From positions 1 through 35,924 of the forward strand of contig JAVZGN010000010.1 in NCBI GenBank assembly GCA_038872135.1: a stretch of 35,924 nt of DNA, in the 5' to 3' direction. The position numbers were made by a program, and so were the translations under genes. This stretch comes from Candidatus Hadarchaeales archaeon (GTDB lineage Archaea; Hadarchaeota; Hadarchaeia; Hadarchaeales; Hadarchaeaceae). Below, in pieces: positions 10,053 to 31,879 of this stretch (within the stretch, counting starts at the first letter, position 1; each line of letters begins with the position of its first letter). The notes below the pieces were generated by a model. That model saw only the letters and a program-made list of their open reading frames with translations, was not told the DNA's origin and made no database searches.

Positions 10053-12107
10053 GTGCAGATGGAATTTGATGAGATAGTGGGGAGAATTCTCGAAAAAAAT
10101 TCATCGTTAACATATGACGAACTCATGCAAAGGATAAAAAGGAAGCAGGAGGAATTGAAGAACCTGATCACCCCTGAAGGAGCAGCGATTATAATCGCTC
10201 ATGAGCTAAATGTCGATCTTGGAACCCAACCCCCGCAGATCGTCCCCCTTTACATTGAAGATCTCGCTCCAGGGATGTCGAGGGTTGATGTTGTCGGCCG
10301 AGTTGTGAGGGTTGTGGGGCCAAAAGATTTTGCGAAACAAACCGGAAGGGGCGGGAGCAGAGGGGTCCTCTGGCTCATGGACAAAACCGCAAGCATCAGG
10401 ATGGTTCTGTGGGATGAAAAGACCCAGCTTCTCAGAGAAAAGAAGATAGAGAAGGGGGATGTGATCAGGGTAAGAAATGGGTATGTGAAGATGGGGGTGG
10501 ATGGTCGGCCGGAGCTTCTCCTCGGCAAGCGGGGAACAATCGAGATAATCGGGGCTCAGGACGACCCTAGGGCTGCCGAAGTCCCTCCACTGCCAGCTGG
10601 CCACATGAAGATATCTGAGATCAGGGAGGGGGCTGGAGAGGTGGATGTGGTGGGGAGGGTGGTGAGTGTCGGGAGCGTGAAGACATTTGAAAGGGAAGGG
10701 GGTGAGGGAAAAGTGGCGAGCCTCATCATCTCCGACGGCAGTGAATGGATTAGGGTCTCCCTGTGGGATGAGTGGGCGGAGTTTGTTGGACAGCTCAGAA
10801 CCGGAGATGCCGTGAAGATTGAAAATGCCTCAGTGAGAATTGGACTTGGAAACAGGGTTGAACTGAGCTTAGGAACCGGCGGGAGGATAATAAAAGACCA
10901 TCCTGAGGCCCTGAAGATTCCCGAAAGACCCCGGGAGTATCTAAAGGTTAACGAACTGGATGTTAAAATGCCGTCCGTAAACTTTGCCGGGAGAGTAGTG
11001 AGAAAACTCCCCCCTGTTGATTTTCAGCGGCGAGATGGAAGCAGGGGGAGGGTCATGAGTGCAATTTTGATGGACGAAACAGGAATTATCCGTGCATCAT
11101 TCTGGGATTCCGCCGCCGCCACAGTTGAAAATGTTAAGGCGGGAGATGTCGTTCTCATAGAAAATGGTTACACAAAGCCCGGGGTTGGAAATGCTGTTGA
11201 AATTCACGCCGGCAAAAATGCTACTGTCAAGATAAATCCTCCGGGAATAGATGTTGGACCACCCATTGAGAAAAAGGTAAAAATAAGTGAAATCGGGCCG
11301 AACGCCTGCGGGTTGGTGGTTGCCGGAAGAGTCATCGAGGTGACGCCTCTCAGGGAGTTTGAGAAGGAGGGAAGGAAGGGAAAAGTGGCGTCAATGGTCA
11401 TCGGAGACGAAACATCGCAGGTGAGAGTATCCCTTTGGGGAGCCGTTGCTGAGAGGGTTGAGGAAATAAAGGTTGGAGACATTGTGAGGATTTCTCGCGC
11501 GTATTCTGTTCCCGGAGGCTTGGGCGTTGAACTTGCTGTGGATGAAGATGGAAAGATTGAGGTGAACCCCTCCGGGGAGGAGATCTCCGCCATCGCCCCG
11601 CAAAAAAGAGCTGTAAAAAGAGTTGAGATAGGAGCAATAAACAAGGAGGGGGAGGTTGTGGAAGTTCGTGGAACGATTGTCCATGTTGTCCACAAAAAGC
11701 CCATTTTTGGTGCTTGCCCAAGCTGCGGGAAGAGTCTCAGAAATCTGAATGGAGAAACTGTGTGCGAGGAATGTGGGAAAAGCGTGAAACCGCAGCCAAG
11801 ATGTGTCCTGACATTCACATTGGACGACGGGACCGGGACTCTCAGAGTAACTCTCTTCGGAAAACTCGCTGAAAAAATCGCTGGAGCGACCGCAGAGGAG
11901 ATTGCGGCGAGACTTGAAAAAAACCCAGATGTCGTAAAGTTATATGAAGAAATCAATTTGACAGGAAGGGAAGTGGTGGTGAACGGCGTTATCAGATATG
12001 ATGGTTTCATCGAGGGGTTTGAAATGCTCGGGCGAGAGATCAGGGGGGCGGACCCCTTTGAGGAGACGAGGCTTCTGCTTGAAAGCATAAAAGGTGGAAT
12101 GCCATAA
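10053..12107 (+). CDS. rpa: Replication protein A (ssDNA-binding; 5 OB folds plus Zn finger)
   Basis: Repeated OB units (V.GRV...D.T..IR..LW) and CPSC...CEEC in the last OB. Immediately upstream of radA. Start may be ATG 10059. Confidence 0.92.
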
Positions 12108-12121
12108 AGAGGGGTGAGGGT

Positions 12122-13081
12122 ATGAAGAGGGTAAATGCAGCTATAGAAGATCTCCCGGGGGTGGGGGAGGCTATAGCCGAGAAGCTGCGCGAGGCTGGAT
12201 ACAGGACGATTGAATCGATTGCCGTGGCATCGATTGGAGAGCTATGTGAAGCCGCTGAGATAGGAGAGGGTGTGGCGAAGAAGATCATTGCGGGGGCAAG
12301 GGAGATGGCGAGGGTTGGAGAGTTCACCACCGGAGACAAGGTCTTGGAGATGAGGGAGAAAATCGGGAGGATAACGACTGGGAGCAAAAAGCTGGATGAG
12401 CTTCTGGACGGAGGAGTGGAAACCCAGGGGGTAACTGAAGCCTTTGGGGAGTTTGGGTCGGGGAAAACCCAGCTTGGGCATCAGCTTGCGGTCAATGTTC
12501 AGCTGCCGGTAGAAAAAGGGGGACTTGAAGGAAAAGCCATCTTCATAGATACTGAGGGGACATTCAGGCCGGAGAGGATCAGAGATATGGCTGTAGCCGT
12601 TGGGCTTGATCCATTCCGAACTCTCAAGAACATCTACTGGGTGAGAGCTTTCAACACCGATGAGCAGATATTGATAACAGAGAAGGCCGAGGAGATGGCG
12701 GAGAAGGAGGACGAGAGGATAAAGCTAATCATCGTTGATTCCCTTATGTCCCACTTCAGGGCGGAGTATCCTGGGAGAGGAAAGCTTGTTGACAGGCAGC
12801 AAAAGATAAACAGGCTCCTGATGATCCTCCACAGAATTGCTTCCCTTCATGACCTCGCTGTTTATGTCACGAACCAAGTTCTGTCTGCCCCAGATGTGTT
12901 TTTTGGTGACCCGACGAGGCCTATAGGGGGGCATGTGGTGGGCCACAGTGTTACCACTAGGATATACTTGAGAAAATCAAAGGCTCCGAAGAGGATTGCA
13001 AGGATTTATGACAGCCCCGCCCTGCCGGAAAATGAGGCTGTCTTTGCCATCCTCTCAGATGGAATAAGGGATTTGCAGTAG
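12122..13081 (+). CDS. radA: DNA repair and recombination protein RadA
   Basis: N-terminal HhH (DLPGVG), Walker [35 protein letters not shown] and GGHVVGH. No intein seen. Confidence 0.98.
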
Positions 13082-18869: not shown

Positions 18870-21146
18870 ATGAAAATCCACATCTCAAGACAGGTGGCCG
18901 CGCTCATCGTTTTAACCGTGATATTAACAACTGGCTTCATGGCCTACGGCCTTACGAGGCTTGAAAGCACAACAAGGTTCCGCGAGTTCCTGCCCAAAGA
19001 CTCTCCAGCGATAAAAACCACCGAGGAGTTCGAAAACACTTTCGATGGGGGTGGCGGTGGCGCTGAGATCATCCTGGTGAAGGCCGCAGACGTCACTCAA
19101 GCAGAAATCTTCCTGGCCATCCTCCGCCTCGAGAATGAAATCAGAACCGACGCCGAACTTCTGGAATACATTGGAGAAGTGAACTCCTATGCAGACTATA
19201 TCCTTCCACATCTCCCTGCTCCACCATTCTCCATTCCCGAACCCCAGCTCGAAAACTACATCCAGCTTATCCTGAGCAACCCTTCCGTGGGTAGCACTAT
19301 AACCAGAATTCTGAGCGAGAATCGAACGACTGCACTGATAATCATTCAAACTACGCCGGGCTTCTCCGGTGAAGAAAGGAGTAGGAAGCTCCAGCGGCTT
19401 TCTGAAATCGTGGAGACCTTCCAGGAGAATTACAAAAACATCGTCTTTGAGCTGACCGGAGACCAGAGGCTACACGCGGAGATAATGGAGATAATGAACG
19501 GGGACAACAGGATTCTCATACCCTCCGCAGCCGCCTTTGTTGTTGTCATCCTCTTCTTCACTTTCAGGAAACTCTCAGACATCGGTCTCTCAATGCTCGT
19601 TGTGGGGCTAGGGGCCGTTTGGGCTGTTGGAGCGATGGGCTGGCTTGGAATGAAGTTCACAATGCTCCACGTTGCCCTAGTGCCCCTTCTTTTCGGTCTT
19701 GGGATCGACTACTCCATCCACATGCTCAACAGGTATTCTGAAGAGCGGAGAGATAGAGTTCCGCCCAAAGAAGCCGTGAAAAAATCCATCCAAACCACAG
19801 GGATTGCTGTAATCCTGGCCGCAGTGACAACCATGATCGGCTTCGGCTCCTTTCTGGTTTCTGATCTCTCGGCCATGTCGAGCATGGGAGTTTTCACCGC
19901 CCTCGGAATAGGGTTCATCTTCCTCCTCTCTGTGGTCTTCCTGCCCTCAGCGTTGCTTCTCCGCGACAGGGGTGAGGGGAAGATCAGAAGGGTGACGGCT
20001 AGACGAGGAAAGCATGCCGCCCTTGTGCTTTCAGCAGTGGCGGGCTTTGCCGAGCGTCACAAGAAGCCGATAATCCTCCTAGCAACGGCCCTAGCAGCCC
20101 TCTCCCTCCTCTCGGCCTCCAGCATCCAGACAGCTATGTCCTTCGAAACATTTCTTCCGGAAGATGTTCCCGCGATGAGGACAATGCGTGAGATAAGCGA
20201 GCAGTTCGGTGGGCAATGGACCATCGTCGTTCTCGCCCGCGGGGAAATCAGGTCCCCGGGAGGGCTGCAGGAGATGGTTGAGCTGGAGAACTCTGTTTTG
20301 AGAGAAAAGGAAAATCTGATCACCGGGTCTAGGAGCCTCGGGAGCACTGTTTCGCTGATTGCCGGGGCCCAGCCATCAGAACTCTCGCAGGCCCAGATCG
20401 ACGCCATCATTAACAATGAAAAAATTCTCGAACCATCCCAACGAAAGAGGCTACTGAGTGATAATCTGGCCGTGATCTACTTCTACATGAACCCAAGGAA
20501 CGACAAGGAGATGGCAGAAGCCATTCAAGCCGTGAAGTCATGTATCCAAGAAAGGTCATGGAACTTCATCGATATGCGTATAGATGGTGAACCGGCAGTC
20601 GGCGGGGAAGCCGTCATCATTACCGAGGTAATAGGAAGGATCCTCTCAAGCACCATACAAACAACTTTCTTTGCAATCATCCTCTGTCTCGCCGTGGTCG
20701 CTTCAGCTTTTCGCTCCCTCACCCTTGGTCTCGCTGCGCTCACCCCCCTCCTCCTCACCGTGAGCTGGGAATTCGGGATGCTCAAGATCCTCGGGTGGCC
20801 GCTGGATGTCCTCACCATGGGAATTTCGGCCCTCACAATCGGAGTTGGCATAGACTACGGTATCCACATCATCCACAGGTTCTTGGAAGAAAACAAGCGA
20901 AAGGATGTTGAATTCAGTCTAGCCCTCGAAACCACTGTGACCCATGTGGGGATGTCGCTGCTCGCTGCGTGGGCGACGACCATCGGGGTCTTCGGAATAC
21001 TGGCTCTCTCAAGGATGCCGGCGATGGCGAGGTTCGGAGGGCTGACCGCTCTTGTGATAACTCTTTCTTTTGTCTCCGCCCTCGTTGTCCTGCCATCGGT
21101 GCTCGCTCTCACAATGAGGAAAAGCTTCACGAAAAGAGGCTTTTAA
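18870..21146 (+). CDS. RND-superfamily / MMPL (HAE3-like) transporter
   Basis: Internally duplicated TM-loop-5TM architecture; GLGIDYSIH and GVGIDYGIH motifs. Confidence 0.92.
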   Translation: MKIHISRQVAALIVLTVILTTGFMAYGLTRLESTTRFREFLPKDSPAIKTTEEFENTFDGGGGGAEIILVKAADVTQAEIFLAILRLENEIRTDAELLEYIGEVNSYADYILPHLPAPPFSIPEPQLENYIQLILSNPSVGSTITRILSENRTTALIIIQTTPGFSGEERSRKLQRLSEIVETFQENYKNIVFELTGDQRLHAEIMEIMNGDNRILIPSAAAFVVVILFFTFRKLSDIGLSMLVVGLGAVWAVGAMGWLGMKFTMLHVALVPLLFGLGIDYSIHMLNRYSEERRDRVPPKEAVKKSIQTTGIAVILAAVTTMIGFGSFLVSDLSAMSSMGVFTALGIGFIFLLSVVFLPSALLLRDRGEGKIRRVTARRGKHAALVLSAVAGFAERHKKPIILLATALAALSLLSASSIQTAMSFETFLPEDVPAMRTMREISEQFGGQWTIVVLARGEIRSPGGLQEMVELENSVLREKENLITGSRSLGSTVSLIAGAQPSELSQAQIDAIINNEKILEPSQRKRLLSDNLAVIYFYMNPRNDKEMAEAIQAVKSCIQERSWNFIDMRIDGEPAVGGEAVIITEVIGRILSSTIQTTFFAIILCLAVVASAFRSLTLGLAALTPLLLTVSWEFGMLKILGWPLDVLTMGISALTIGVGIDYGIHIIHRFLEENKRKDVEFSLALETTVTHVGMSLLAAWATTIGVFGILALSRMPAMARFGGLTALVITLSFVSALVVLPSVLALTMRKSFTKRGF

Positions 21147-21379: not shown

Positions 21380-22561
21380 TCACCAGGACGGCCCATAAAT
21401 GAACAAAACAACGAAAATCGCCACCAGCGCAGCAACTCCTAGTATTCTGATCAAAATGTGCGGCTTTGGCCTCTCCTCTATCTCATAGTAATGCTCTTCC
21501 TCTGGACCTGCTAGGCCCTCAGTGGCAGCTACTGCTGCCGCCCCAGCTGGCTTTGCAAAAACTTCTATCGGCTTCTCTTCTCTAGTTTTCTTCCTGTACC
21601 AGTAATAGATGAGGCCTAGAACAGCCCACGGAACCGCAATAACATAGAAGAGATACGGCACGAGGCCGAGAGCAGTTATCTGGGGAATTGTGTAGGAGGG
21701 GCTAACGCTAGCATTGTAAAGGTTCATGTTCCAGAGGATTATCGCTATGCAGGAATAAACGGTGAAGGCATTCCAGTAGGGGTTGGCAGCGCTCACCAGA
21801 TAGAGCCCGCTCGTCCTCTGCTTTGTGAGGGGCCAGAAGAGATTGTTTCCCATGTGTCCAAAAGTGTCCAAGACTATATGCATGAACCATCCAGCAAAAA
21901 TTATTCCTCCAACCTGCGGCATCCCAGTGAGAAGCCACCCAAGGATAGCGAAAATGACTCCAAGGGTGAGACTGTGACCTGCCCTGCGGTGGAAGGGGAT
22001 GAATACCACCTCCACAGCACCATCCTTCCGCTTGAGGTAGCCGAAAGATGGCCCGCTGAAGCCTTTTATTTCAGTTGGTCTCCCATAGGTCTCTATAAGC
22101 TTCACGTTGAACTTGGCCGCTCCAAAAGCCTTCTCGGGCGGTGGTTCTGTTCCCGGCGCTGGGACCCCGGACATCGTCACGTGCGGCCCCACCCTCACCT
22201 CCACCTGGCTCTCCTTTTTGTTGTAGTAAATGCTGTATGACTGCCAGAGATCTGGGCCTATTCTCAAAGTGTGCAGCTGAACCTTCCTCATCTCTCCTGG
22301 CTTAAGCGTTCCCGCCTTGTTTATCTCCCCCGCAATTTTCTCTGCAATCTCTTTTGGATTGATGTTATATGGATCTGGGTCAATCACCGCATCATATTTT
22401 TCCATGTAAACCAGAAACTTGAAGTCCAGGGTGTCTGGCAAAAGCCCAAAAATTCCACCCAAAATTATCAGCACCGAGTCCTCCAGAACTGCCCCGAGCA
22501 TCAGGCTCTTGAAAAATGTTGCAACAGTTATCCCCATGATGAAGTGTGTCAGACCTCTCAT
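21380..22561 (-). CDS. YdjM-like membrane metal-dependent hydrolase with large soluble insertion
   Basis: LTH at the N-terminus, LPDTLD, HRRAGHSL and HIVLD.....G..LFWP motifs; several TM segments. Confidence 0.8.
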   Translation of the reverse strand: MRGLTHFIMGITVATFFKSLMLGAVLEDSVLIILGGIFGLLPDTLDFKFLVYMEKYDAVIDPDPYNINPKEIAEKIAGEINKAGTLKPGEMRKVQLHTLRIGPDLWQSYSIYYNKKESQVEVRVGPHVTMSGVPAPGTEPPPEKAFGAAKFNVKLIETYGRPTEIKGFSGPSFGYLKRKDGAVEVVFIPFHRRAGHSLTLGVIFAILGWLLTGMPQVGGIIFAGWFMHIVLDTFGHMGNNLFWPLTKQRTSGLYLVSAANPYWNAFTVYSCIAIILWNMNLYNASVSPSYTIPQITALGLVPYLFYVIAVPWAVLGLIYYWYRKKTREEKPIEVFAKPAGAAAVAATEGLAGPEEEHYYEIEERPKPHILIRILGVAALVAIFVVLFIYGPSW

Positions 22562-23878
22562 CTAGTACACCCCCAGCAACTGCAGGATATCTCCTCTCAT
22601 TCCCGCCATGTTCAGAAAGATTGGGAAGAAGAATCCGATGATCAGGTTCAAGCGCCTCGTTCTAAACATCGGTGGAATTAACCCCAACCCCGTGGCGATG
22701 ACCATCACCAGCAGCCCCTTCAATCCCGTGAACCCATAGACCATGAGGAGGAGCACGATCAAGACAGCAAGAGATATTTTCCGATAGCTAATTCTTGAAA
22801 CCACCTTTGCCAGCACCCTTGAGAAGATGATGAGAAGAATGAAAGCTAGAACAGCGGTAAAGGCGAGGATGGAAGCAAGAAGCCAGAATTCCGACTCCGT
22901 CCTGGGTTGATAAATCATGCTAGTCATCCAGGCCATTCCCCCGCGGGTGAGATGGAGAAGTGGTACCCAGAAAAGGAAGAAAGCCCCCACATAATATGCA
23001 AACCTTCCTGCCGCTCCGGAAACCATGAACTGGACATCTCCCTGGGTAGAAGTAGAGTGCCCCGCCAACACCCCTCCAACCCCTGCAGTTACTACTGGCT
23101 CAAAAGCGGCGAAAGCCCCCCCAAGAAAGCCGGCGGATGCCCCTCTTGCGACATCCTTTTTCGTAACATACATCTCTCTAGTTATCACCTGAGGTGGAAT
23201 CTCTGCTTTTGAAACAAGATTTGTGAGAACCCATGGAACCGCAAAAAATCCCACAAAAACCGGCATTATATTCTGAAATGATATGTGGGCGGGAACCACC
23301 GGTATGTTCAAGACTATGAAACCAAGGGCCATCGAAAGGAAGAAGGTTAGCCACCCTGCACTCAAGCTCGCCCATCCGTCCTTTAGCCTCCCCAGCCTTG
23401 TCTTGGCCCTGCTCCCCCAGTCCTTCGGCCACTCCGATTGGAGAAGATAGGCGGCTATCCCTATCAGCACCCACGCAAAGTGAGGAGTGGTGATCTTTCT
23501 GAAAATCGGGAAGAGAATTCCTGACACCGGGGCAACTGCAAGAAGAAGAAGTGCTGAGATTAGGGTGCCCAATCCCGATATCACCGACGCCTCATAGCCC
23601 CGTCCATAAATGAGATACTTTTGATTTGGAAATGCCATGTACATCGTGCTGTCGTCTGGGGAGCCGAGGAAGGTCGTTGTCACCGTTCCAACAAAGGAAT
23701 ATGCAACAAGCATTCCAGCAAAAAGCATGGCCATCCCCAGGGGATCCATCGGGAAGGCAAGATAGATGAAAATTCCTATCCCCGCAAAATTCAGGGGGTG
23801 GAGCCCGGGAAGAATGGAAAGCCCCGAGCCGATCAGAACTCCAACAACACCGTAAAGCAGATATCCCAGCGACTCCAT
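22562..23878 (-). CDS. TctA-family (DUF112) tripartite tricarboxylate transporter-like permease
   Basis: ILPGLHPLN, FLGSPDD, P....I.GRG.EA and P..TAG motifs; about 12 TM segments. Confidence 0.85.
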   Translation of the reverse strand: MESLGYLLYGVVGVLIGSGLSILPGLHPLNFAGIGIFIYLAFPMDPLGMAMLFAGMLVAYSFVGTVTTTFLGSPDDSTMYMAFPNQKYLIYGRGYEASVISGLGTLISALLLLAVAPVSGILFPIFRKITTPHFAWVLIGIAAYLLQSEWPKDWGSRAKTRLGRLKDGWASLSAGWLTFFLSMALGFIVLNIPVVPAHISFQNIMPVFVGFFAVPWVLTNLVSKAEIPPQVITREMYVTKKDVARGASAGFLGGAFAAFEPVVTAGVGGVLAGHSTSTQGDVQFMVSGAAGRFAYYVGAFFLFWVPLLHLTRGGMAWMTSMIYQPRTESEFWLLASILAFTAVLAFILLIIFSRVLAKVVSRISYRKISLAVLIVLLLMVYGFTGLKGLLVMVIATGLGLIPPMFRTRRLNLIIGFFFPIFLNMAGMRGDILQLLGVY

Positions 23879-25327
23879 CTACTCCACCTCCTGAATGTCC
23901 TCCGGCATCCCTGGCTCAACCGCAACCTTCCCCAAAGCACTTCCAATCTTTCCAATGATTTTTACTCTCTCACCCTTCGCCGGCTGCTCAAGAAGTCTCT
24001 CCCAGAGATGGTTGGGAACATAAATGGTGAGCCTCCCCCCATGGTTATCCTCAATTTCCAGCAGACGATCGCTCGGCAGCTCCCCCTTCTTAATCTCTGA
24101 AGTCTCTTTGATGACGCCCTCAACTGTTACAAGATTGCCGCGTGGAATGGTGCCAATAGTTAAAAAGTTTTCTACCCTTGGCGGCTCAAAGGTTCCAGGC
24201 GTTAGCTCTGGCTGCTGCGGCCCCGTGAACTGTATCCTCACGCCTGCTGGATCGGCTGAATATTTCTCGACCCTCCCAATGAAATCGATCTCCGTCCCCC
24301 GCCTAATGAACGCCCTATTGTCCAGAAGTTTATAAACATCCTCATCCAGTTCAACCCTCGGACTGCTTTCGTTCTCCAGCCACAGGATCCTCTTGGTAAA
24401 CTTCAGGCTGTTGGCCTCCGGCACTGCTTCAACAAAAATTATCCGTCCCCCGACCCTCACCGGTCTTTTGACCATGTTCTCGTTCAGCTGCCAAAGCTGG
24501 AAACTCTCCACACTATCTCTTCCCACCACCTCGATCTCATCATAACTCGCCACTGCCAGCTGTGGAGTTCCATAGTACTGGGAAACTCCAGCCGTTATTC
24601 TGACCCTATCCATGACAGAAAATGGCGGCGGACTTTTCTCCACATAAGCTTCAAGCCCATTGTGAATGTAAACCTGAATTTCCGCCCCATTGTCGAGCAA
24701 TGTATAAATTTTTGCCGAGCTTTTTGGATCTACGCCCACCACAGTTCCCTCCACCGTCACCTTCTTGTAGACAGAGCTCTCGGGAGTTCCCCAGCCGCTG
24801 AGAATTCTTCTGATGGTTGTGTTTTCCGGCTCCATCCTTGTTATCTTTATGTCATCAGAACTTGTGACCCTTATCTCGCGGGTAACTGTAACAGCCGACC
24901 TCACCTGCCCGAAAACCCTCACGCGGTCACCGACCTTGGGAATGTTTTTCCCCGCGAGCATCTCCGTGAATGCTGGATCGTAAATCTCAACGTTTATCTT
25001 TGAGAGAGTGAAATCTGAAGAACTGTTATCCCAAATCTCAAACTCCATCGATGTCGACTGATACTCTGGACCTGAGACAACCACCCCCTCCAAGAGGACA
25101 TAGGAATAATCAAGCCAGGGATCTATCGTGGAAATGGGAACTGGTATCGGCTGAGAAGTCGCTAGGTGAAGTGAGAAGAAGACCCCACCGATCGCCAGCA
25201 CAACTAGGCAGAGCGCAAACGCCCATTTAACAGATATTTTGTACCTTGTATCTACGCCACAGTGGGGGCAGACGGGATAGCCGGGATTTGGTTTCCCACA
25301 GGCCGGGCACAATTTCTCATCACTCAT
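23879..25327 (-). CDS. Membrane-anchored protein: N-terminal Zn ribbon, single TM, three or more OB-fold-like repeats
   Basis: CPACG..CPHCG, TM at about aa 35-55, repeats of V.VEG.V...GD.VRV.G.V, and YYGTPQL. Confidence 0.8.
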   Translation of the reverse strand: MSDEKLCPACGKPNPGYPVCPHCGVDTRYKISVKWAFALCLVVLAIGGVFFSLHLATSQPIPVPISTIDPWLDYSYVLLEGVVVSGPEYQSTSMEFEIWDNSSSDFTLSKINVEIYDPAFTEMLAGKNIPKVGDRVRVFGQVRSAVTVTREIRVTSSDDIKITRMEPENTTIRRILSGWGTPESSVYKKVTVEGTVVGVDPKSSAKIYTLLDNGAEIQVYIHNGLEAYVEKSPPPFSVMDRVRITAGVSQYYGTPQLAVASYDEIEVVGRDSVESFQLWQLNENMVKRPVRVGGRIIFVEAVPEANSLKFTKRILWLENESSPRVELDEDVYKLLDNRAFIRRGTEIDFIGRVEKYSADPAGVRIQFTGPQQPELTPGTFEPPRVENFLTIGTIPRGNLVTVEGVIKETSEIKKGELPSDRLLEIEDNHGGRLTIYVPNHLWERLLEQPAKGERVKIIGKIGSALGKVAVEPGMPEDIQEVE

Positions 25328-26211
25328 TTGATCACCCTGAGATCATCCCAAGAAGCCACCCAGAGCTGGGGAGTTGTGTAGTAAAGCTGAATTGCCCCCT
25401 TCACTGTAATCACATCCCCAATCCTGGCCTGAAGCTCCCCAAACTGCCAGAGGACTTTCGGGAGCATCACATTCAGCTCTGCACCGGTTTCCGGCTCGAG
25501 AAGGGTAAGCACCAATGCCCACCCAAGATCACTTTTTCCGATGATCTTCCCGGTGACCATCAACCGGGAATACTGTGGGAAGTTCTCGGGGTGGAGGGCT
25601 ATCTGCTCTATCTTCACTGGGATTGCCTCCGGCCGGTTGATTTCAAGGAATCCCTCCGGGTACTGCACTATCAGCATCCTGAACTCTCCGGCCTTCTCCC
25701 TGGAGGCCCTCACCCGCAGGTTGCCTCTCAAGGTCACTATATCTCCAAGAGCCGGAAACTTTGGAGTGTTATCGCCCGCCCTGAGCCGCTCATTCTCAAG
25801 TTTAAGGAGGAACTTGGTTGTAGCATCATAGGCGCGAACAAAAACATCTGCATTTTCATTTTCAGGATCGGCAATATACATCCCGAGAAACTTCGTGTCC
25901 TCATAATACTTCACAAATGTCGCTTTTCCCGTCATCACGGCCTGAGCAAAGTTCAAGGTGGAGGCATTGTCTAGGTAGAGATCCGCCACCCTTATCCCAT
26001 GAGGGCCCTCCACGATGAGATGGGTTGTCCTGACATCCACGTAGAGGAACAGAATTCCTAAAACTGCTAATGCCAAACCGCCCCACTTGAGAAGCCTGAA
26101 GGAAAGGCGCTTTGGAACCTTCGCCCCACAGTATGGACACTTCTCTAGGGTTCCCACATATCTCTTGCACTTCGGGCAGTAGACTTCCTCAACTCTCCCA
26201 ACCGGTCTCAT
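25324..26211 (-). CDS. Membrane-anchored protein: N-terminal Zn ribbon, single TM, two OB-fold-like repeats
   Basis: CPKC..CPYCG, TM (WGGLALAVLGILFLYV), LGDIVTLRGNL and IGDVITVKGAIQLYYTTPQL. Start moved to ATG 26211 to remove overlap with the DUF429 gene. Confidence 0.8.
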   Translation of the reverse strand: MRPVGRVEEVYCPKCKRYVGTLEKCPYCGAKVPKRLSFRLLKWGGLALAVLGILFLYVDVRTTHLIVEGPHGIRVADLYLDNASTLNFAQAVMTGKATFVKYYEDTKFLGMYIADPENENADVFVRAYDATTKFLLKLENERLRAGDNTPKFPALGDIVTLRGNLRVRASREKAGEFRMLIVQYPEGFLEINRPEAIPVKIEQIALHPENFPQYSRLMVTGKIIGKSDLGWALVLTLLEPETGAELNVMLPKVLWQFGELQARIGDVITVKGAIQLYYTTPQLWVASWDDLRVIK

Positions 26212-26267
26212 GGGGTCACGAGTCCTTTTCGATAGCGATTTCAACCAAGGTATTAAATCACTTTTGT

Positions 26268-26816
26268 ATGGGGAGGAAAATTGTTGGCATAGATTTGGCA
26301 GGAAAAGAGGAAAATCCCACGGGAGTGGCATTTTTCGACGGAAGAGAAATAATCACCGCCACCTTGCACTCTGACGATGAAATAACAGTGGCCTGCGCTG
26401 GCGCCTCGCTTGCAGCCATTGACGCCCCTCTCTCACTTCCTAGGAAGGGAGCCCTGAGAAAATGCGACCTCCTCCTGATCGGGCGCGGCTTCAGGGTCTT
26501 CCCCCCATGCTTTGGTGGGATGTCAACCCTCACCAAGCGAGGGGCAGCTCTGGCCAAAAAGCTCCGCCAAAGGGGGCTGAACGTCATTGAAATCCATCCG
26601 AGAACATCTGCAGTGATCCTCTTCGGGACTGATGAAAGGAAGGAATGGGTGAAAATAATGAAGAAGAGAGGCATCAGGTTTTGCAGAGCAGCCAGCAATC
26701 ATGAGATCGATGCTGCAATTGCCGCCCTCACCGGATGGCTTCACCTTCAGAAAAAAACAGAAGAGGTTGGTGGCAGGGATGGGAAAATAATCATTCCCCT
26801 TCACAGAGCCTTTTGA
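26268..26816 (+). CDS. DUF429-like predicted nuclease (RNase H fold)
   Basis: VGIDLAG, AIDAPLS, R.CD, IEIHP and HEIDA motifs. Start at ATG 26268. Confidence 0.85.
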   Translation: MGRKIVGIDLAGKEENPTGVAFFDGREIITATLHSDDEITVACAGASLAAIDAPLSLPRKGALRKCDLLLIGRGFRVFPPCFGGMSTLTKRGAALAKKLRQRGLNVIEIHPRTSAVILFGTDERKEWVKIMKKRGIRFCRAASNHEIDAAIAALTGWLHLQKKTEEVGGRDGKIIIPLHRAF

Positions 26817-28946: not shown

Positions 28947-29651
28947 TTGAGAAGCATCTCTCTTCTGTCTGGAAAAGGAGGTGTCGGGAGAACAACTATT
29001 GCCGTCAACCTTGGAGTAGCCCTGGCTATGATGAAAAAGGATGTCATCCTTCTTGATGCATCCTTCACCTCTCCAGATGTCGCCTTTCACTTCAAGCTTG
29101 AAAAGGCATTATACACGATAAACGACGCTTTGCTGGATCAGGCAGCATTTAGCAACGTCCTATATTCTGGTCCTGCCGGGCTGAGAATTGCGCCGGCTGC
29201 AGTCACCCTCGAGCAGATAAAGATGACCAAACCTGAAAGGTTGCCTGAGGTCATCCAGAAGGCCGGGCTTGATGTGGACTTCCTCATCATCGATGCTTCT
29301 GGGGGCCTGCGCAGGGAAACTGTGGCGGCCGTGAGGTCCACCAAAGAAGCCCTTTTCATCGCCACACCGGACATAGTTTCCCTCTCAGACTGCCTAAAAG
29401 CCAAGCTGGTGGCGGAGTTCCTCGGCGCCAAGTCGATCGGCCTTGTGCTCAATCGGGTGAGGGGTGAAGATTTTGAGCTGGACAAAAATGAGATAAAGGA
29501 GATTGTCGGGCTGCCGATAATTGAAATCATTCCTGAGGATGAAAAGGTCCAGCAGGCATTGAGAAAAGGAGAGCCGCTGATAGTCATGGACCCAAAAGCC
29601 CCGGCTGCGGTGGCGATAGAAAAGCTTGCAAAGAAAATCTCCAAGGGATGA
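28947..29651 (+). CDS. minD: MinD-family ATPase (Walker A K->R variant)
   Basis: SGKGGVGRTT..VNLG, LDA, IDASGG, ATPD, VLNRV and IPED motifs. Confidence 0.88.
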   Translation: MRSISLLSGKGGVGRTTIAVNLGVALAMMKKDVILLDASFTSPDVAFHFKLEKALYTINDALLDQAAFSNVLYSGPAGLRIAPAAVTLEQIKMTKPERLPEVIQKAGLDVDFLIIDASGGLRRETVAAVRSTKEALFIATPDIVSLSDCLKAKLVAEFLGAKSIGLVLNRVRGEDFELDKNEIKEIVGLPIIEIIPEDEKVQQALRKGEPLIVMDPKAPAAVAIEKLAKKISKG

Positions 29652-30596
29652 TCAGAAGCCTCCGGAAGGAGTCTCCTCTGGCGGCGCGGGGGCTTCTGAA
29701 GGCGGGGCCTCTGGCGGCGCTTGCGGAGGTGGGGTCTCCGGGGGGGCCTCAGGTGGCGCGAGCATTTCCCCCTCCGGCATTCCTCCTTTCCTTTTCATCA
29801 GCATGAAAACCGCGACTAAAACCACCACAATCACAACTGCGGCACCGATGATCTCAATTGGCAGCCCTCCTCCTCCACCCGCCACCTCAATCCCAGAGAT
29901 GGTGGTGTCGTAGTCAATCGTCCAGTAACCGCTAGCACTCTTCTCCAGGTAGAGATTACCTACCTGATACAGTTGATTAGGAGTTTTTTCCACATAGTCT
30001 CCACCATACTTTACACCATTGTAGACAAATGTGAGTTCATTTTGGTTATCTCCATCTATATCCTCAAACTGGATGGGTGTGTCTCCCCATCTCAATCTTA
30101 ACCTCGCCCTAAGCTTCACCGTCCCGCCAACGGGGATATCATTCATTCCAACCTTCGTCTTGTCCTCCTCCGGCCTTGGGTAAGGGACAACTGTGTTGTT
30201 GATTGTGAACTCACGGGTGTCTGGCATCTCGGCCGTCCAAGAATCCCCCTGCTTTCGATGGTCCCACCATCCAGAGTACAGGACGCTGCCACCTATAGTA
30301 GTGGGACTCCCTTCACTATAACAGTTTGTGCCATCATAGAAGTATGTTCTGACCTCCCATTTTGGCGGTGTTTCACCACTCGTCCAAGCCGGGAGAGCCA
30401 TCCCACGTGGTCGCGTCACTCGAACTGTTATCGGGTATGTCTTCCCCGGCTCAATGATGGATGGATAATCAATTATCTCTACGGTGAACTGCGGTGGAGG
30501 TGATACAGCTTGAGCGTGGGCCGGTGCTACCGAAGCTACACCTAAAAAAACCGCTGCAACGACAGCCAGTAGCAGCAGACTTCTCCAGGTGGTCAT
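29652..30596 (-). CDS. Hypothetical cell-surface protein (signal peptide, C-terminal TM, Pro/Glu-rich tail)
   Basis: Signal peptide ending AHA, Gly linker, TM, KRK, then EAPP-type repeats. TATA TTTAAATA lies about 30 nt upstream of ATG 30596. Confidence 0.8.
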   Translation of the reverse strand: MTTWRSLLLLAVVAAVFLGVASVAPAHAQAVSPPPQFTVEIIDYPSIIEPGKTYPITVRVTRPRGMALPAWTSGETPPKWEVRTYFYDGTNCYSEGSPTTIGGSVLYSGWWDHRKQGDSWTAEMPDTREFTINNTVVPYPRPEEDKTKVGMNDIPVGGTVKLRARLRLRWGDTPIQFEDIDGDNQNELTFVYNGVKYGGDYVEKTPNQLYQVGNLYLEKSASGYWTIDYDTTISGIEVAGGGGGLPIEIIGAAVVIVVVLVAVFMLMKRKGGMPEGEMLAPPEAPPETPPPQAPPEAPPSEAPAPPEETPSGGF

Positions 30597-30675
30597 TCCA
30601 CTCCCGCCTGAAATTTCCCCCAATATTTAAATACTTTGGCAAAACCTCAAACGCAGTGGGCTACACTAATTGTCT

Positions 30676-31497
30676 CTATTCTTCCGGGATGGGTGCCTCA
30701 ACTTTTTTGCTCAACACTATATATGCTCCGGCCCCCACAGCTGCTGCAATCGAAACTCCGGCCACAGTTAATTTCACTTCGGCTGGCAGATCAATCGGCT
30801 CTTCCGGCCTGCTCGTGGAAACCAGATCTATTTCAATGGGTTCATCAACATAGAAATCGGCTCTCTCAGGTGCTGTCTCACTAACATTCGCCGTCATGTC
30901 TTTGTCGATTACCAGCCTATATTTCCCCGCAGAGTCAAGATTTATCTTAGTTGGAAGCTTCGGTCCCTGCAAGACATAATCGTCATACACTTTTGTGTAC
31001 TGATACTGGAAAGTGGCTGCACCAAGAGAAAATATCACATAGCCTGCTTCTTCCCCCGCCCCACCAGAAAAAACTGGATTAATGTTCTTTATTATCAGCC
31101 TGAGCCTGAAGGTCACGGACTGCCCGATGGGAATTTCTCTCATCCCCTGAGCGATATCCTCTGGATTTCTTGGATAGCTGACCACCTTTGTGTGAATAAC
31201 TAAACTTTTTTCTTCCGGTGAACCCAGCCATTCATCTCCGATCACCCTGTGCTGGTACCAGCCGGTGTAGAAGCCTTCGCTCCAGCTTCCATCGCTGAAG
31301 CAGCTCGTCCCGCTGTAATAGTATGCTCTCACCTCCCACTGTCCATCCCTGAGAATCACATAGCTTGGCTTCCTAACGGAAAGATGAACTGTGTAATCTC
31401 CGCCCGGCCTTATGTCATATGTCCCTTGAGCCATGACAATGGGAGCCAAAGAGAGGAGCAGAAATACCGCGGCTGGGACAATCCAAATCCTCATCAT
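30676..31497 (-). CDS. Hypothetical cell-surface protein, paralogue of the 29652-30596 gene
   Basis: Signal peptide (MMRIWIVPAAVFLLLSLAPIVMA) and C-terminal TM. Shares WEVR.Y.Y.GT.C.S.G, GW..HR..GD.W and VV.YPR..ED blocks with its neighbour. Confidence 0.8.
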   Translation of the reverse strand: MMRIWIVPAAVFLLLSLAPIVMAQGTYDIRPGGDYTVHLSVRKPSYVILRDGQWEVRAYYYSGTSCFSDGSWSEGFYTGWYQHRVIGDEWLGSPEEKSLVIHTKVVSYPRNPEDIAQGMREIPIGQSVTFRLRLIIKNINPVFSGGAGEEAGYVIFSLGAATFQYQYTKVYDDYVLQGPKLPTKINLDSAGKYRLVIDKDMTANVSETAPERADFYVDEPIEIDLVSTSRPEEPIDLPAEVKLTVAGVSIAAAVGAGAYIVLSKKVEAPIPEE

Positions 31498-31525
31498 CAC
31501 CCACTCGGCTGTCGCAGGTATATAT

Positions 31526-31879
31526 CTAAGCTTTCTCTGGACGGGTGGTGAAGCTGAAAATCTTTGGCTTCGGCTCATAGATGCGTCCGGCTATCTTTTC
31601 CTCCTCCAAGATCTGATTGACCTCATCCTTTGTCAGCCCCACCTTCACAGCCAGCTCCACTATCTCATCTAGCTCTACCTGTCCCGCAGGATCTTTCGCT
31701 GCAAGGGCTCTCATCGCCCTTCTCACAAAATCAATTTTCGCTTCATGCCCCCTCAGCATGGGTGGCGGAGATTCTCTCCTGGAAGGCGTAGGTTCAACGC
31801 TGACATAGGTTTCGACCTCCAGCTCAAGGCCGAACATCTTTCCGCAGAATGGACACACCGCCTGCACCCTCTGTCTCAT
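31526..31879 (-). CDS. Small protein: single CxxC plus C-terminal winged helix resembling the archaeal MCM C-terminus
   Basis: CPFC near the N-terminus; LDEIVELA..VGL..DEV..IL......G.IYEPKP pattern. Confidence 0.7.
   Translation of the reverse strand: MRQRVQAVCPFCGKMFGLELEVETYVSVEPTPSRRESPPPMLRGHEAKIDFVRRAMRALAAKDPAGQVELDEIVELAVKVGLTKDEVNQILEEEKIAGRIYEPKPKIFSFTTRPEKA

Follow-up and report, generated by a model that had tools for sequence, protein, structure and literature searches.

The 35,924 nucleotides that open contig JAVZGN010000010.1 of an uncultured hot-spring archaeon, a metagenome-assembled genome of the phylum Hadarchaeota (this whole stretch of DNA is called the window below), carry a four-gene operon, all on the minus strand, whose genes we name A, B, C, and D and whose third product is a membrane protein of the TctA family. 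We give an even chance to the reading that these four genes form one operon for the capture and import of extracellular nucleic acid, either DNA or fragments of it, and if that reading holds, the cargo is more probably fragments or single strands than double-stranded polymer. The case is made because of three things taken together, the genetics of natural transformation published by Fonseca et al. (2023), the nucleic-acid-type OB folds of the first two proteins, and the fact that no ComEC was found. By its architecture, the module appears to be an enlarged variant, shared with bacteria, of the pair of an OB-fold protein and a TctA-like protein that is needed for transformation in methanogens. 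Its parts are as follows:

25324..26211, minus strand: gene A, 295 amino acids (aa), with an N-terminal CxxC..CxxC zinc ribbon predicted to be cytoplasmic, a transmembrane (TM) helix at about residues 38-56, two OB folds predicted to lie outside, and the motif YYTTPQL near the C-terminus
23879..25327, minus strand: gene B, 482 aa, in which a zinc ribbon and TM helix 33-57 precede four OB folds at about residues 76-163, 189-270, 289-376, and 399-480
22562..23878, minus strand: gene C, 438 aa, a TctA-family membrane protein of a distinct subfamily, here called C-type
23372..23437, minus strand: the subfamily loop SEWPK...DGW of C, residues 148-169, rich in lysine and arginine (K/R), predicted to be cytoplasmic and to contact D
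21380..22561, minus strand: gene D, 393 aa, a YdjM-family membrane protein with an extra C-terminal TM helix at residues 369-392
21992..22402, minus strand: the inserted alpha/beta domain of D, residues 54-190, which splits the YdjM core
26212..26267, no strand: the short intergenic region between gene A and a divergent DUF429 gene, by its coordinates the likely promoter region of the operon

In the arrangement that we propose, A and B are anchored by one helix each, with the small zinc ribbon inside and two and four tandem OB folds, respectively, outside the cell. The OB arrays would stand in for the missing TctC and pass nucleic acid to C, which would carry it, or pieces of it, inward. D, docked on the cytoplasmic loop of C, would act at the inner face of the membrane, its substrate being the cargo or else a phosphoester or lipid.

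An earlier note made from the letters of this stretch had described four genes coupled without gaps, and the bases at the junctions bear this out. The sequence ATGA at 25324-25327 (read on the coding strand) holds both the TGA of A and the overlapping ATG of B, the TAG of B at 23879-23881 abuts the ATG of C at 23876-23878, and the TAG of C at 22562-22564 abuts the ATG of D at 22559-22561. The longest open reading frame (ORF) for A spans 25324-26331, with an alternative start at the ATG at 26211. This second start is supported because nine Hadarchaeal orthologues begin at the same MRP/MKP position and because the divergent DUF429 gene begins only about 56 nt from it. The neighborhood conservation that the earlier note proposed to check was also found, with the order A-B-C-D identical in the eight other Hadarchaeota loci (of eight) with enough flank, which come from several genera (a ninth locus is cut). 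It is very hard to see all this as chance adjacency, or as mere co-transcription of genes with no shared function, and we regard such an explanation as extremely improbable, given the overlapping or abutting stop and start codons, the constant order, the recurrence of the pairing of OB and TctA genes across domains, and the predicted interface between C and D described below.

Judged from their alignment, A and B are paralogues, A matching the first half of B, with residues 6-295 of A on residues 1-269 of B (hhalign probability 100, E 2.6e-39). The shared ribbon, single TM helix, OB repeats, and YYxTPQL motif that had been noted before can all be read in the translations, the ribbon as CPKC..CPYC in A and CPAC..CPHC in B and the last motif as YYTTPQL and YYGTPQL, while the number of OB folds, earlier given as two and as three or more, comes to two in A and four in B. 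In Pfam, B matches the OB family PF01336 (E 1.4e-13) and a zinc ribbon model (E 8.9e-5); the PF01336 match of A stays under the cut-off (E 0.0016, 18.8 bits), and so does its ribbon match. The AlphaFold model of B (predicted local distance difference test score, pLDDT, 89.9; predicted template modeling score, pTM, 0.78) displays the ribbon, one TM helix, and four OB barrels. Compared with the PDB by Foldseek, this model gave 249 matches at E<=1e-3, the top ones being tandem-OB DNA binders (p204 HINab with double-stranded DNA, 4.3e-14; RPA70 with single-stranded DNA, 1.5e-10), followed by others such as RADX, Teb1, CST, POT1, and the RPA of Pyrococcus. A sequence search of the PDB with B returned a single irrelevant match (E 0.87). 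The TM helix and first OB fold of B also resemble the N-terminal DUF4131 of ComEC (E 2.3e-6, 27.8 bits, below the Pfam cut-off of 31.6), and among 20 members of the B family at E<=1e-3, PF01336 was matched in all 20, DUF4131 in 13 (best E 6e-8), and the ribbon model in 10.

Hydropathy and charge place K/R residues beside the TM helix of A and B on the ribbon side, and in bacterial loci most of the second OB genes that have no ribbon begin, by eye, with a lipoprotein-like signal followed by a Pro/Thr-rich linker. For these two reasons the OB domains are very probably extracytoplasmic, as the earlier note had assumed, and the ribbon cytoplasmic.

Protein C is a full-length member of the TctA family PF01970 (E 6e-38, 131 bits against a cut-off of 28.9), with residues 7-413 covering positions 1-422 of the 423 in the profile. 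It is only about 25% identical to the other, canonical TctA of the same genome. A sequence search of the PDB with C gave no matches. The C-type subfamily is monophyletic in a quick tree (Shimodaira–Hasegawa-like approximate likelihood ratio test, SH-aLRT, 100), and it is marked by the loop at residues 148-169, which is present in every C-type row of our alignments and missing from the canonical and other archaeal TctA rows. This is also the most K/R-rich loop of the protein, with 4.6 K/R per 19 residues. Some Hadarchaeal C-type TctA proteins reach 508 aa (L018:4855-6381 and L019:4851-6377; also P0154) and have a further hydrophobic stretch, about 70 residues long, inserted near the C-terminal third.

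Regarding D, its family (YdjM, DUF457, PF04307) is represented in Escherichia coli by a LexA-regulated inner-membrane protein. D matches both halves of the Pfam profile (E 1.1e-12, 48.3 bits against a cut-off of 29), in two stretches at profile positions 1-49 and 59-145 with the insert between them, and keeps a His/Asp set; the HRxxxHS and HxxxD motifs already seen in the earlier note read here as HRRAGHS and HIVLD. Unlike other YdjM proteins, D is twice as long, has its core split by a private domain, and is encoded together with a TctA-like partner. In an alignment of 27 sequences the invariant residues are H6, D43, D46, D61, H191, R192, H196, H228, D232, N264, and N278. The model of D (pLDDT 81.2, pTM 0.74) has helices at 2-53, the insert at 54-190, helices again at 198-326, a disordered segment at 331-362, and the TM helix at 369-392, which is found only in the Hadarchaeal rows of that alignment. 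Across the same 27 sequences, the loops at 28-30, 213-214, and 284-299 hold on average 0.22, 0.11, and 0.67 K/R, compared with 3.56 for the loop at 235-260 and 2.56 for the tail after 326. Read by the positive-inside rule, these charges argue for a topology with the N-terminus inside, so that the inserted domain would probably be cytoplasmic and the His/Asp cluster would probably sit at the level of the inner leaflet or on the cytoplasmic side. With both predicted to face inward, D is unlikely to be the outside strand-degrading nuclease that an analogy with ComEC would need.

The 137-residue insert appears private to the D family, in that all 112 matches at E<=1e-3, from a search of 1.84 billion representatives, come either from fragments or from proteins of comparable length that carry it in roughly the same place. 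It had no Pfam match, and Foldseek gave weak hints of OB-like barrels (E 0.1-0.3), CcmE and CusF among them. For D as a whole, Foldseek against the PDB gave no match at E<=1e-3, a wide structural search nothing convincing (best Z 6.3), and a sequence profile search of the PDB no matches, and these fold, structural, and sequence searches found no YdjM/DUF457 member with a solved structure or shown activity. A possible link of YdjM to the zinc enzymes of the P1-nuclease/phospholipase C group gained no support, with no such enzyme among the structural-search rows shown and no Foldseek match at the threshold given. The nearest Atlas cluster for D has 1045 members, 94% of them Bacteria and most often Chloroflexota. 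Another YdjM-family match of the genome (G000:C11:12644-13114, L068) has one in-frame TGA inside the matched frame, which may mean that the gene is broken, that the sequence is in error there, or that the codon is recoded.

A complex of C with D, the operon pair covered by complex prediction, was predicted with a score of 0.80 (runs of 0.82, 0.79, and 0.80), the best of three controls scoring 0.00. The mark used in this test is reached by 58 of 80 solved complexes and by 2 of 110 mismatched pairs, a calibration that holds only roughly for the custom alignments used here. At least 86% of contacts recur between the runs, with partner pLDDT of at least 78, and memory of a known complex is an unlikely source of the score because neither C nor D has a solved relative by sequence. 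The confident interface involves residues 125-172 (including the subfamily loop), 237-242, 271-283, and 424-426 of C, and on D the first helices (2-55), the parts 97-104, 129-133, and 168-170 of the insert, and then 261-295 and 326-334. D is thus predicted to bind C through the loop that is specific to the C-type subfamily. The features that set this module apart from a plain OB/TctA pair, namely the ribbons of the receptors, the loop of C, and D with its insert, are all predicted to be cytoplasmic, and we infer that they may form one sub-assembly at the inner face.

The closest relative of this arrangement with a known phenotype is found in methanogens. In Methanococcus maripaludis a single-TM OB-fold gene, MMJJ_13020, lies next to the TctA-like MMJJ_13030, and Fonseca et al. 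report each of them as essential for natural transformation, in-frame deletions abolishing it and complementation restoring it; deletion of the TctA-like homologue of Methanoculleus thermophilus likewise abolishes transformation (PMC10133366). The earlier note had mentioned a TctA-like gene with a role in methanogen transformation and advised verification, and MMJJ_13030 and the M. thermophilus gene are indeed such genes. Our literature search found a link of OB/TctA-like proteins to transformation only in Fonseca et al. (2023) and its preprint, a third paper being listed just for the locus tag, and neither "hydrolase" nor "zinc" occurs in the main text of Fonseca et al. (PMC10133366). As in the methanogens, here a single-TM OB protein is encoded directly upstream of a TctA-like protein, with no TctB, TctC, or ComEC. 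Unlike the methanogen pair, the operon encodes two OB proteins, each with an N-terminal zinc ribbon, its TctA comes from a separate subfamily common to bacteria and equipped with the extra K/R-rich loop, and it has a fourth gene, of YdjM type, whose product is predicted to bind TctA. The likeness to MMJJ_13020 and MMJJ_13030 is one of architecture and gene order.

The plain two-gene version is also present in this genome, on another contig:

L004 (G000 contig C5, 29000-43000), 6385-8295, minus strand: canonical OB and TctA pair

Here the TctA (409 aa, E 5e-56) follows directly after a 226-aa OB protein that lacks the ribbon and has a single TM helix and two OB folds. The canonical TctA has 595 homologues at E<=1e-10 and the pair is core to Hadarchaeota, the OB gene standing directly upstream in all 38 canonical loci with upstream sequence (four more are cut at the 5' end of the gene), while D was never found beside the pair in the canonical Hadarchaeota loci scanned. 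A scan of the genome collection with the TctA alignment gave 42 loci; Hadarchaeota or Hadesarchaea stands in the title of 40, and methanogens are not represented. The description of C as an orphan TctA in the earlier note therefore stands in part. No TctB or TctC partner lies in the window, and in the assembly (1.08 Mb, 34 contigs, 91% complete) TctC (PF03401) has no match and TctB (PF07331) a single sub-threshold one on another contig, 17 bits against 29.1; however, C is not the only TctA of the genome. The independence from ComEC that had been put forward agrees with the channel domain PF03772 being above its cut-off in none of 66 Hadarchaeota genomes (one sub-threshold match).

Some further genes were observed around the canonical pair and elsewhere in the assembly. 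About 1.3 kb from the pair and on the other strand (L004 9593-13355, plus) there is a row of small genes encoding proteins with N-termini that resemble archaeal class III (type IV pilin) signal peptides, and one protein matches PF04021 at 23.1 bits, just under the cut-off of 23.7. Pili are needed for transformation in methanogens. Clusters with such signal peptides were seen upstream of none of 25 other canonical loci, using a crude motif detector unvalidated on a positive case. A thermonuclease homologue (SNase PF00565, E 3.6e-15) occurs in a 195-aa frame (G000:C17:9848-10105, L150), a gene class also picked up in the transformation screen of M. maripaludis and so a point in favor of the import reading.

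The missing partners bring in a second way of reading the operon, in which it would be a solute transporter whose tethered OB proteins bind a small cargo other than nucleic acid (an organic anion, a metal chelate, or an oligosaccharide) and in which D replaces TctB as the scaffold-side partner. C is after all a bona fide TctA member, like those of TctABC and BctCBA, and the tripartite tricarboxylate transporters (TTT) to which the family belongs have been modeled as elevator-type carriers of small solutes (bioRxiv 10.64898/2026.07.27.740893). The roles of the missing TctB and TctC must fall to other partners, binding of D to C is predicted, and OB folds accept many kinds of ligand. What distinguishes the operon from those systems is that it has genes for tethered OB proteins and for a YdjM-like protein instead of TctC and TctB, and that C has only 438 aa and a loop specific to its subfamily. 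Against a small cargo, PF01336 and PF13742, the families matched by the OB domains, bind nucleic acid, and tandem-OB DNA binders are matched as well; a polymer would be better suited than a small solute to arrays with two, four, or more OB folds; and the only genetics on an OB/TctA-like pair concern DNA uptake. We consider the small-solute alternative a serious one, but clearly less probable than nucleic-acid import.

Within Hadarchaeota the module is patchy. The C-type TctA is present in 11 of the 66 genomes and D in 10 of them (6 of 20 genera), and the two co-occur in all ten genomes that could be assessed, the contig of the eleventh ending 22 nt after the C-type gene. Outside the phylum, the homologues of C with 33–46% identity are named "bacterium," Wallbacteria, Auribacterota, and a Chlamydiota bacterium. 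We compared metagenome loci, taking the best 80 of 161 relatives (not dereplicated and including three that are Hadarchaeota-like). Where 1.5 kb or more of flank is available (58 loci), an OB gene lies just upstream of the C-type TctA and on the same strand in 50, and 14 of these 50 have a pair of them. Downstream, where 1.3 kb or more is available (59 loci), D is found in 24, in 14 of which it is no more than 200 nt away, and both upstream OB and downstream D are present in 15 of the 47 with both flanks. The CxxC..CxxC ribbon appears within the first 90 residues of 50 of the 68 OB ORFs in these loci. Bacterial flanks (HPr kinase, PTS enzyme I, SpoVG, signal peptidase S26) surround the six loci that are annotated. 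The sole frequent neighbor, a GNAT-domain protein found in 17 of the 80 loci, was rejected as a functional neighbor, being confined to one closely related clade.

A tree of C comprises the 89 rows that remained once ORFs outside 400-530 aa had been set aside and nine identical duplicates removed from the resulting 98 (support is by SH-aLRT only, and the root is at the midpoint). The 13 Hadarchaeal C-type rows make one clade (SH-aLRT 100) nested among bacterial branches, and the basal bacterial branches have D. This suggests that the module passed from bacteria to Hadarchaeota, which probably acquired it in this way, and that D is ancestral, although the direction is tentative because of the long branches and the quick tree method.

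These counts bear as well on the possibility of a module for the maintenance of the envelope or membrane, with D as a lipid-directed hydrolase of the kind proposed for YdjM, the OB proteins as surface or scaffold elements, and no import at all. The position of the conserved polar residues of D at the level of the inner leaflet would fit such a role. Nevertheless, no other part of the module is as variable in its presence as D (24 of 59 loci downstream, against 50 of 58 for the upstream OB gene), the constant core is the OB protein with a member of a transporter family, and the predicted interface ties the role of D to the transporter. We hold membrane maintenance to be improbable, more so than a small-solute transporter.

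ComEC is the other system to which the operon invites comparison. It combines a DUF4131 OB domain, a Competence domain, and a metallo-beta-lactamase nuclease, the latter thought to act outside. The operon has a similar set of parts, a predicted outward OB fold beside a TM helix (in B, with its sub-threshold DUF4131-like match), a polytopic membrane protein, and a putative metal-dependent hydrolase. The differences are that these are separate proteins instead of one fusion, that the membrane protein has the TctA fold, and that the putative hydrolase is of YdjM type with its site predicted to be cytoplasmic. In A-D, Pfam gave no match to the Competence domain PF03772 and none to Lactamase_B (metallo-beta-lactamase) at E<=0.1. 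The four proteins also had no match above any cut-off in NCBIfam and none to the PADLOC defense models. One could go further and propose a three-part, ComEC-independent importer in bacteria and archaea, in which a surface OB array would deliver DNA, or cut strands of it, to a TctA-derived conduit and a YdjM-type metal hydrolase, clamped to the cytoplasmic loop of the conduit, would process or release the strand, the cassette being bacterial in origin and kept together with the older two-gene archaeal version. We regard this full scheme as rather doubtful, well below the broader import reading and slightly behind the small-solute one. One bacterial locus (L075:2317-3549, minus strand) encodes, beside a DNA methylase gene and some 3 kb upstream of its OB-TctA-YdjM module, a 411-aa protein in which a metallo-beta-lactamase match is joined to a DNA-binding motif of ComEA type (HHH_3, E 7e-19).

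Several points weigh against the import of nucleic acid by this operon. Sugars, metals, and haem are also bound by OB folds. The transformation defect of the methanogen mutants could be indirect, and the binding and transport of nucleic acid by A-D are themselves inferred. C is strongly divergent from the canonical TctA, and either of the two paralogues may correspond to MMJJ_13030. The module is accessory because of its patchy presence in Hadarchaeota, D is not adjacent to C in 35 of the 59 metagenome loci with flank, and by the fold, structural, and PDB sequence searches D is left without a relative of known activity. YdjM itself has been proposed as a phospholipase, as mentioned in a review (PMC11442139). 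Finally, an elevator-type mechanism would suit fragments or nucleotides better than a DNA polymer, which argues against C as a DNA channel.

Some other genes of the window were recorded. An RPA-like protein with at least four OB folds (PF01336, E 4e-33, plus a Rep_fac-A C-terminal domain) is encoded at 10053-12107 on the plus strand and is directly followed by RadA/Rad51 (12122-13081, plus, E 7e-89), about 10 kb from the operon and on the opposite strand. A MinD/ParA-type ATPase gene (28947-29651, plus) lies 2.7 kb upstream of gene A and is adjoined by two genes without a clear family (29652-31578, minus). Among the genes reported as essential for transformation in M. maripaludis there is likewise one of MinD/ParA type, along with a hypothetical gene adjacent to it (PMC10133366). 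On the other side, the gene for a membrane protein of MMPL/RND type (18870-21146, plus; 758 aa), which also matches a sterol-sensing domain, is convergent with gene D.

The idea of uptake by an OB/TctA pair is not new, being the published hypothesis of Fonseca et al. (2023), here met on a divergent subfamily. The four-gene form, its spread in bacteria, the interface between C and D, and the inward orientation of D were not found in print as far as we searched. How DNA passes the membrane of archaea is an open question, for which the methanogen OB/TctA-like pair is the only genetic lead. The locus described here appears as a second and richer form of that pair, in which the receptors have zinc ribbons predicted to be cytoplasmic, the permease bears a loop characteristic of its subfamily, and a putative hydrolase is predicted to be fixed to the permease. 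It offers residues, interfaces, and possibly cultivable hosts for asking whether a transporter fold became a nucleic-acid importer, and if the cargo should be a small solute instead, the operon would still represent a new way to build a TTT-type transporter without TctB or TctC. Being common to bacteria, the module could also reveal a bacterial uptake route that works without ComEC.

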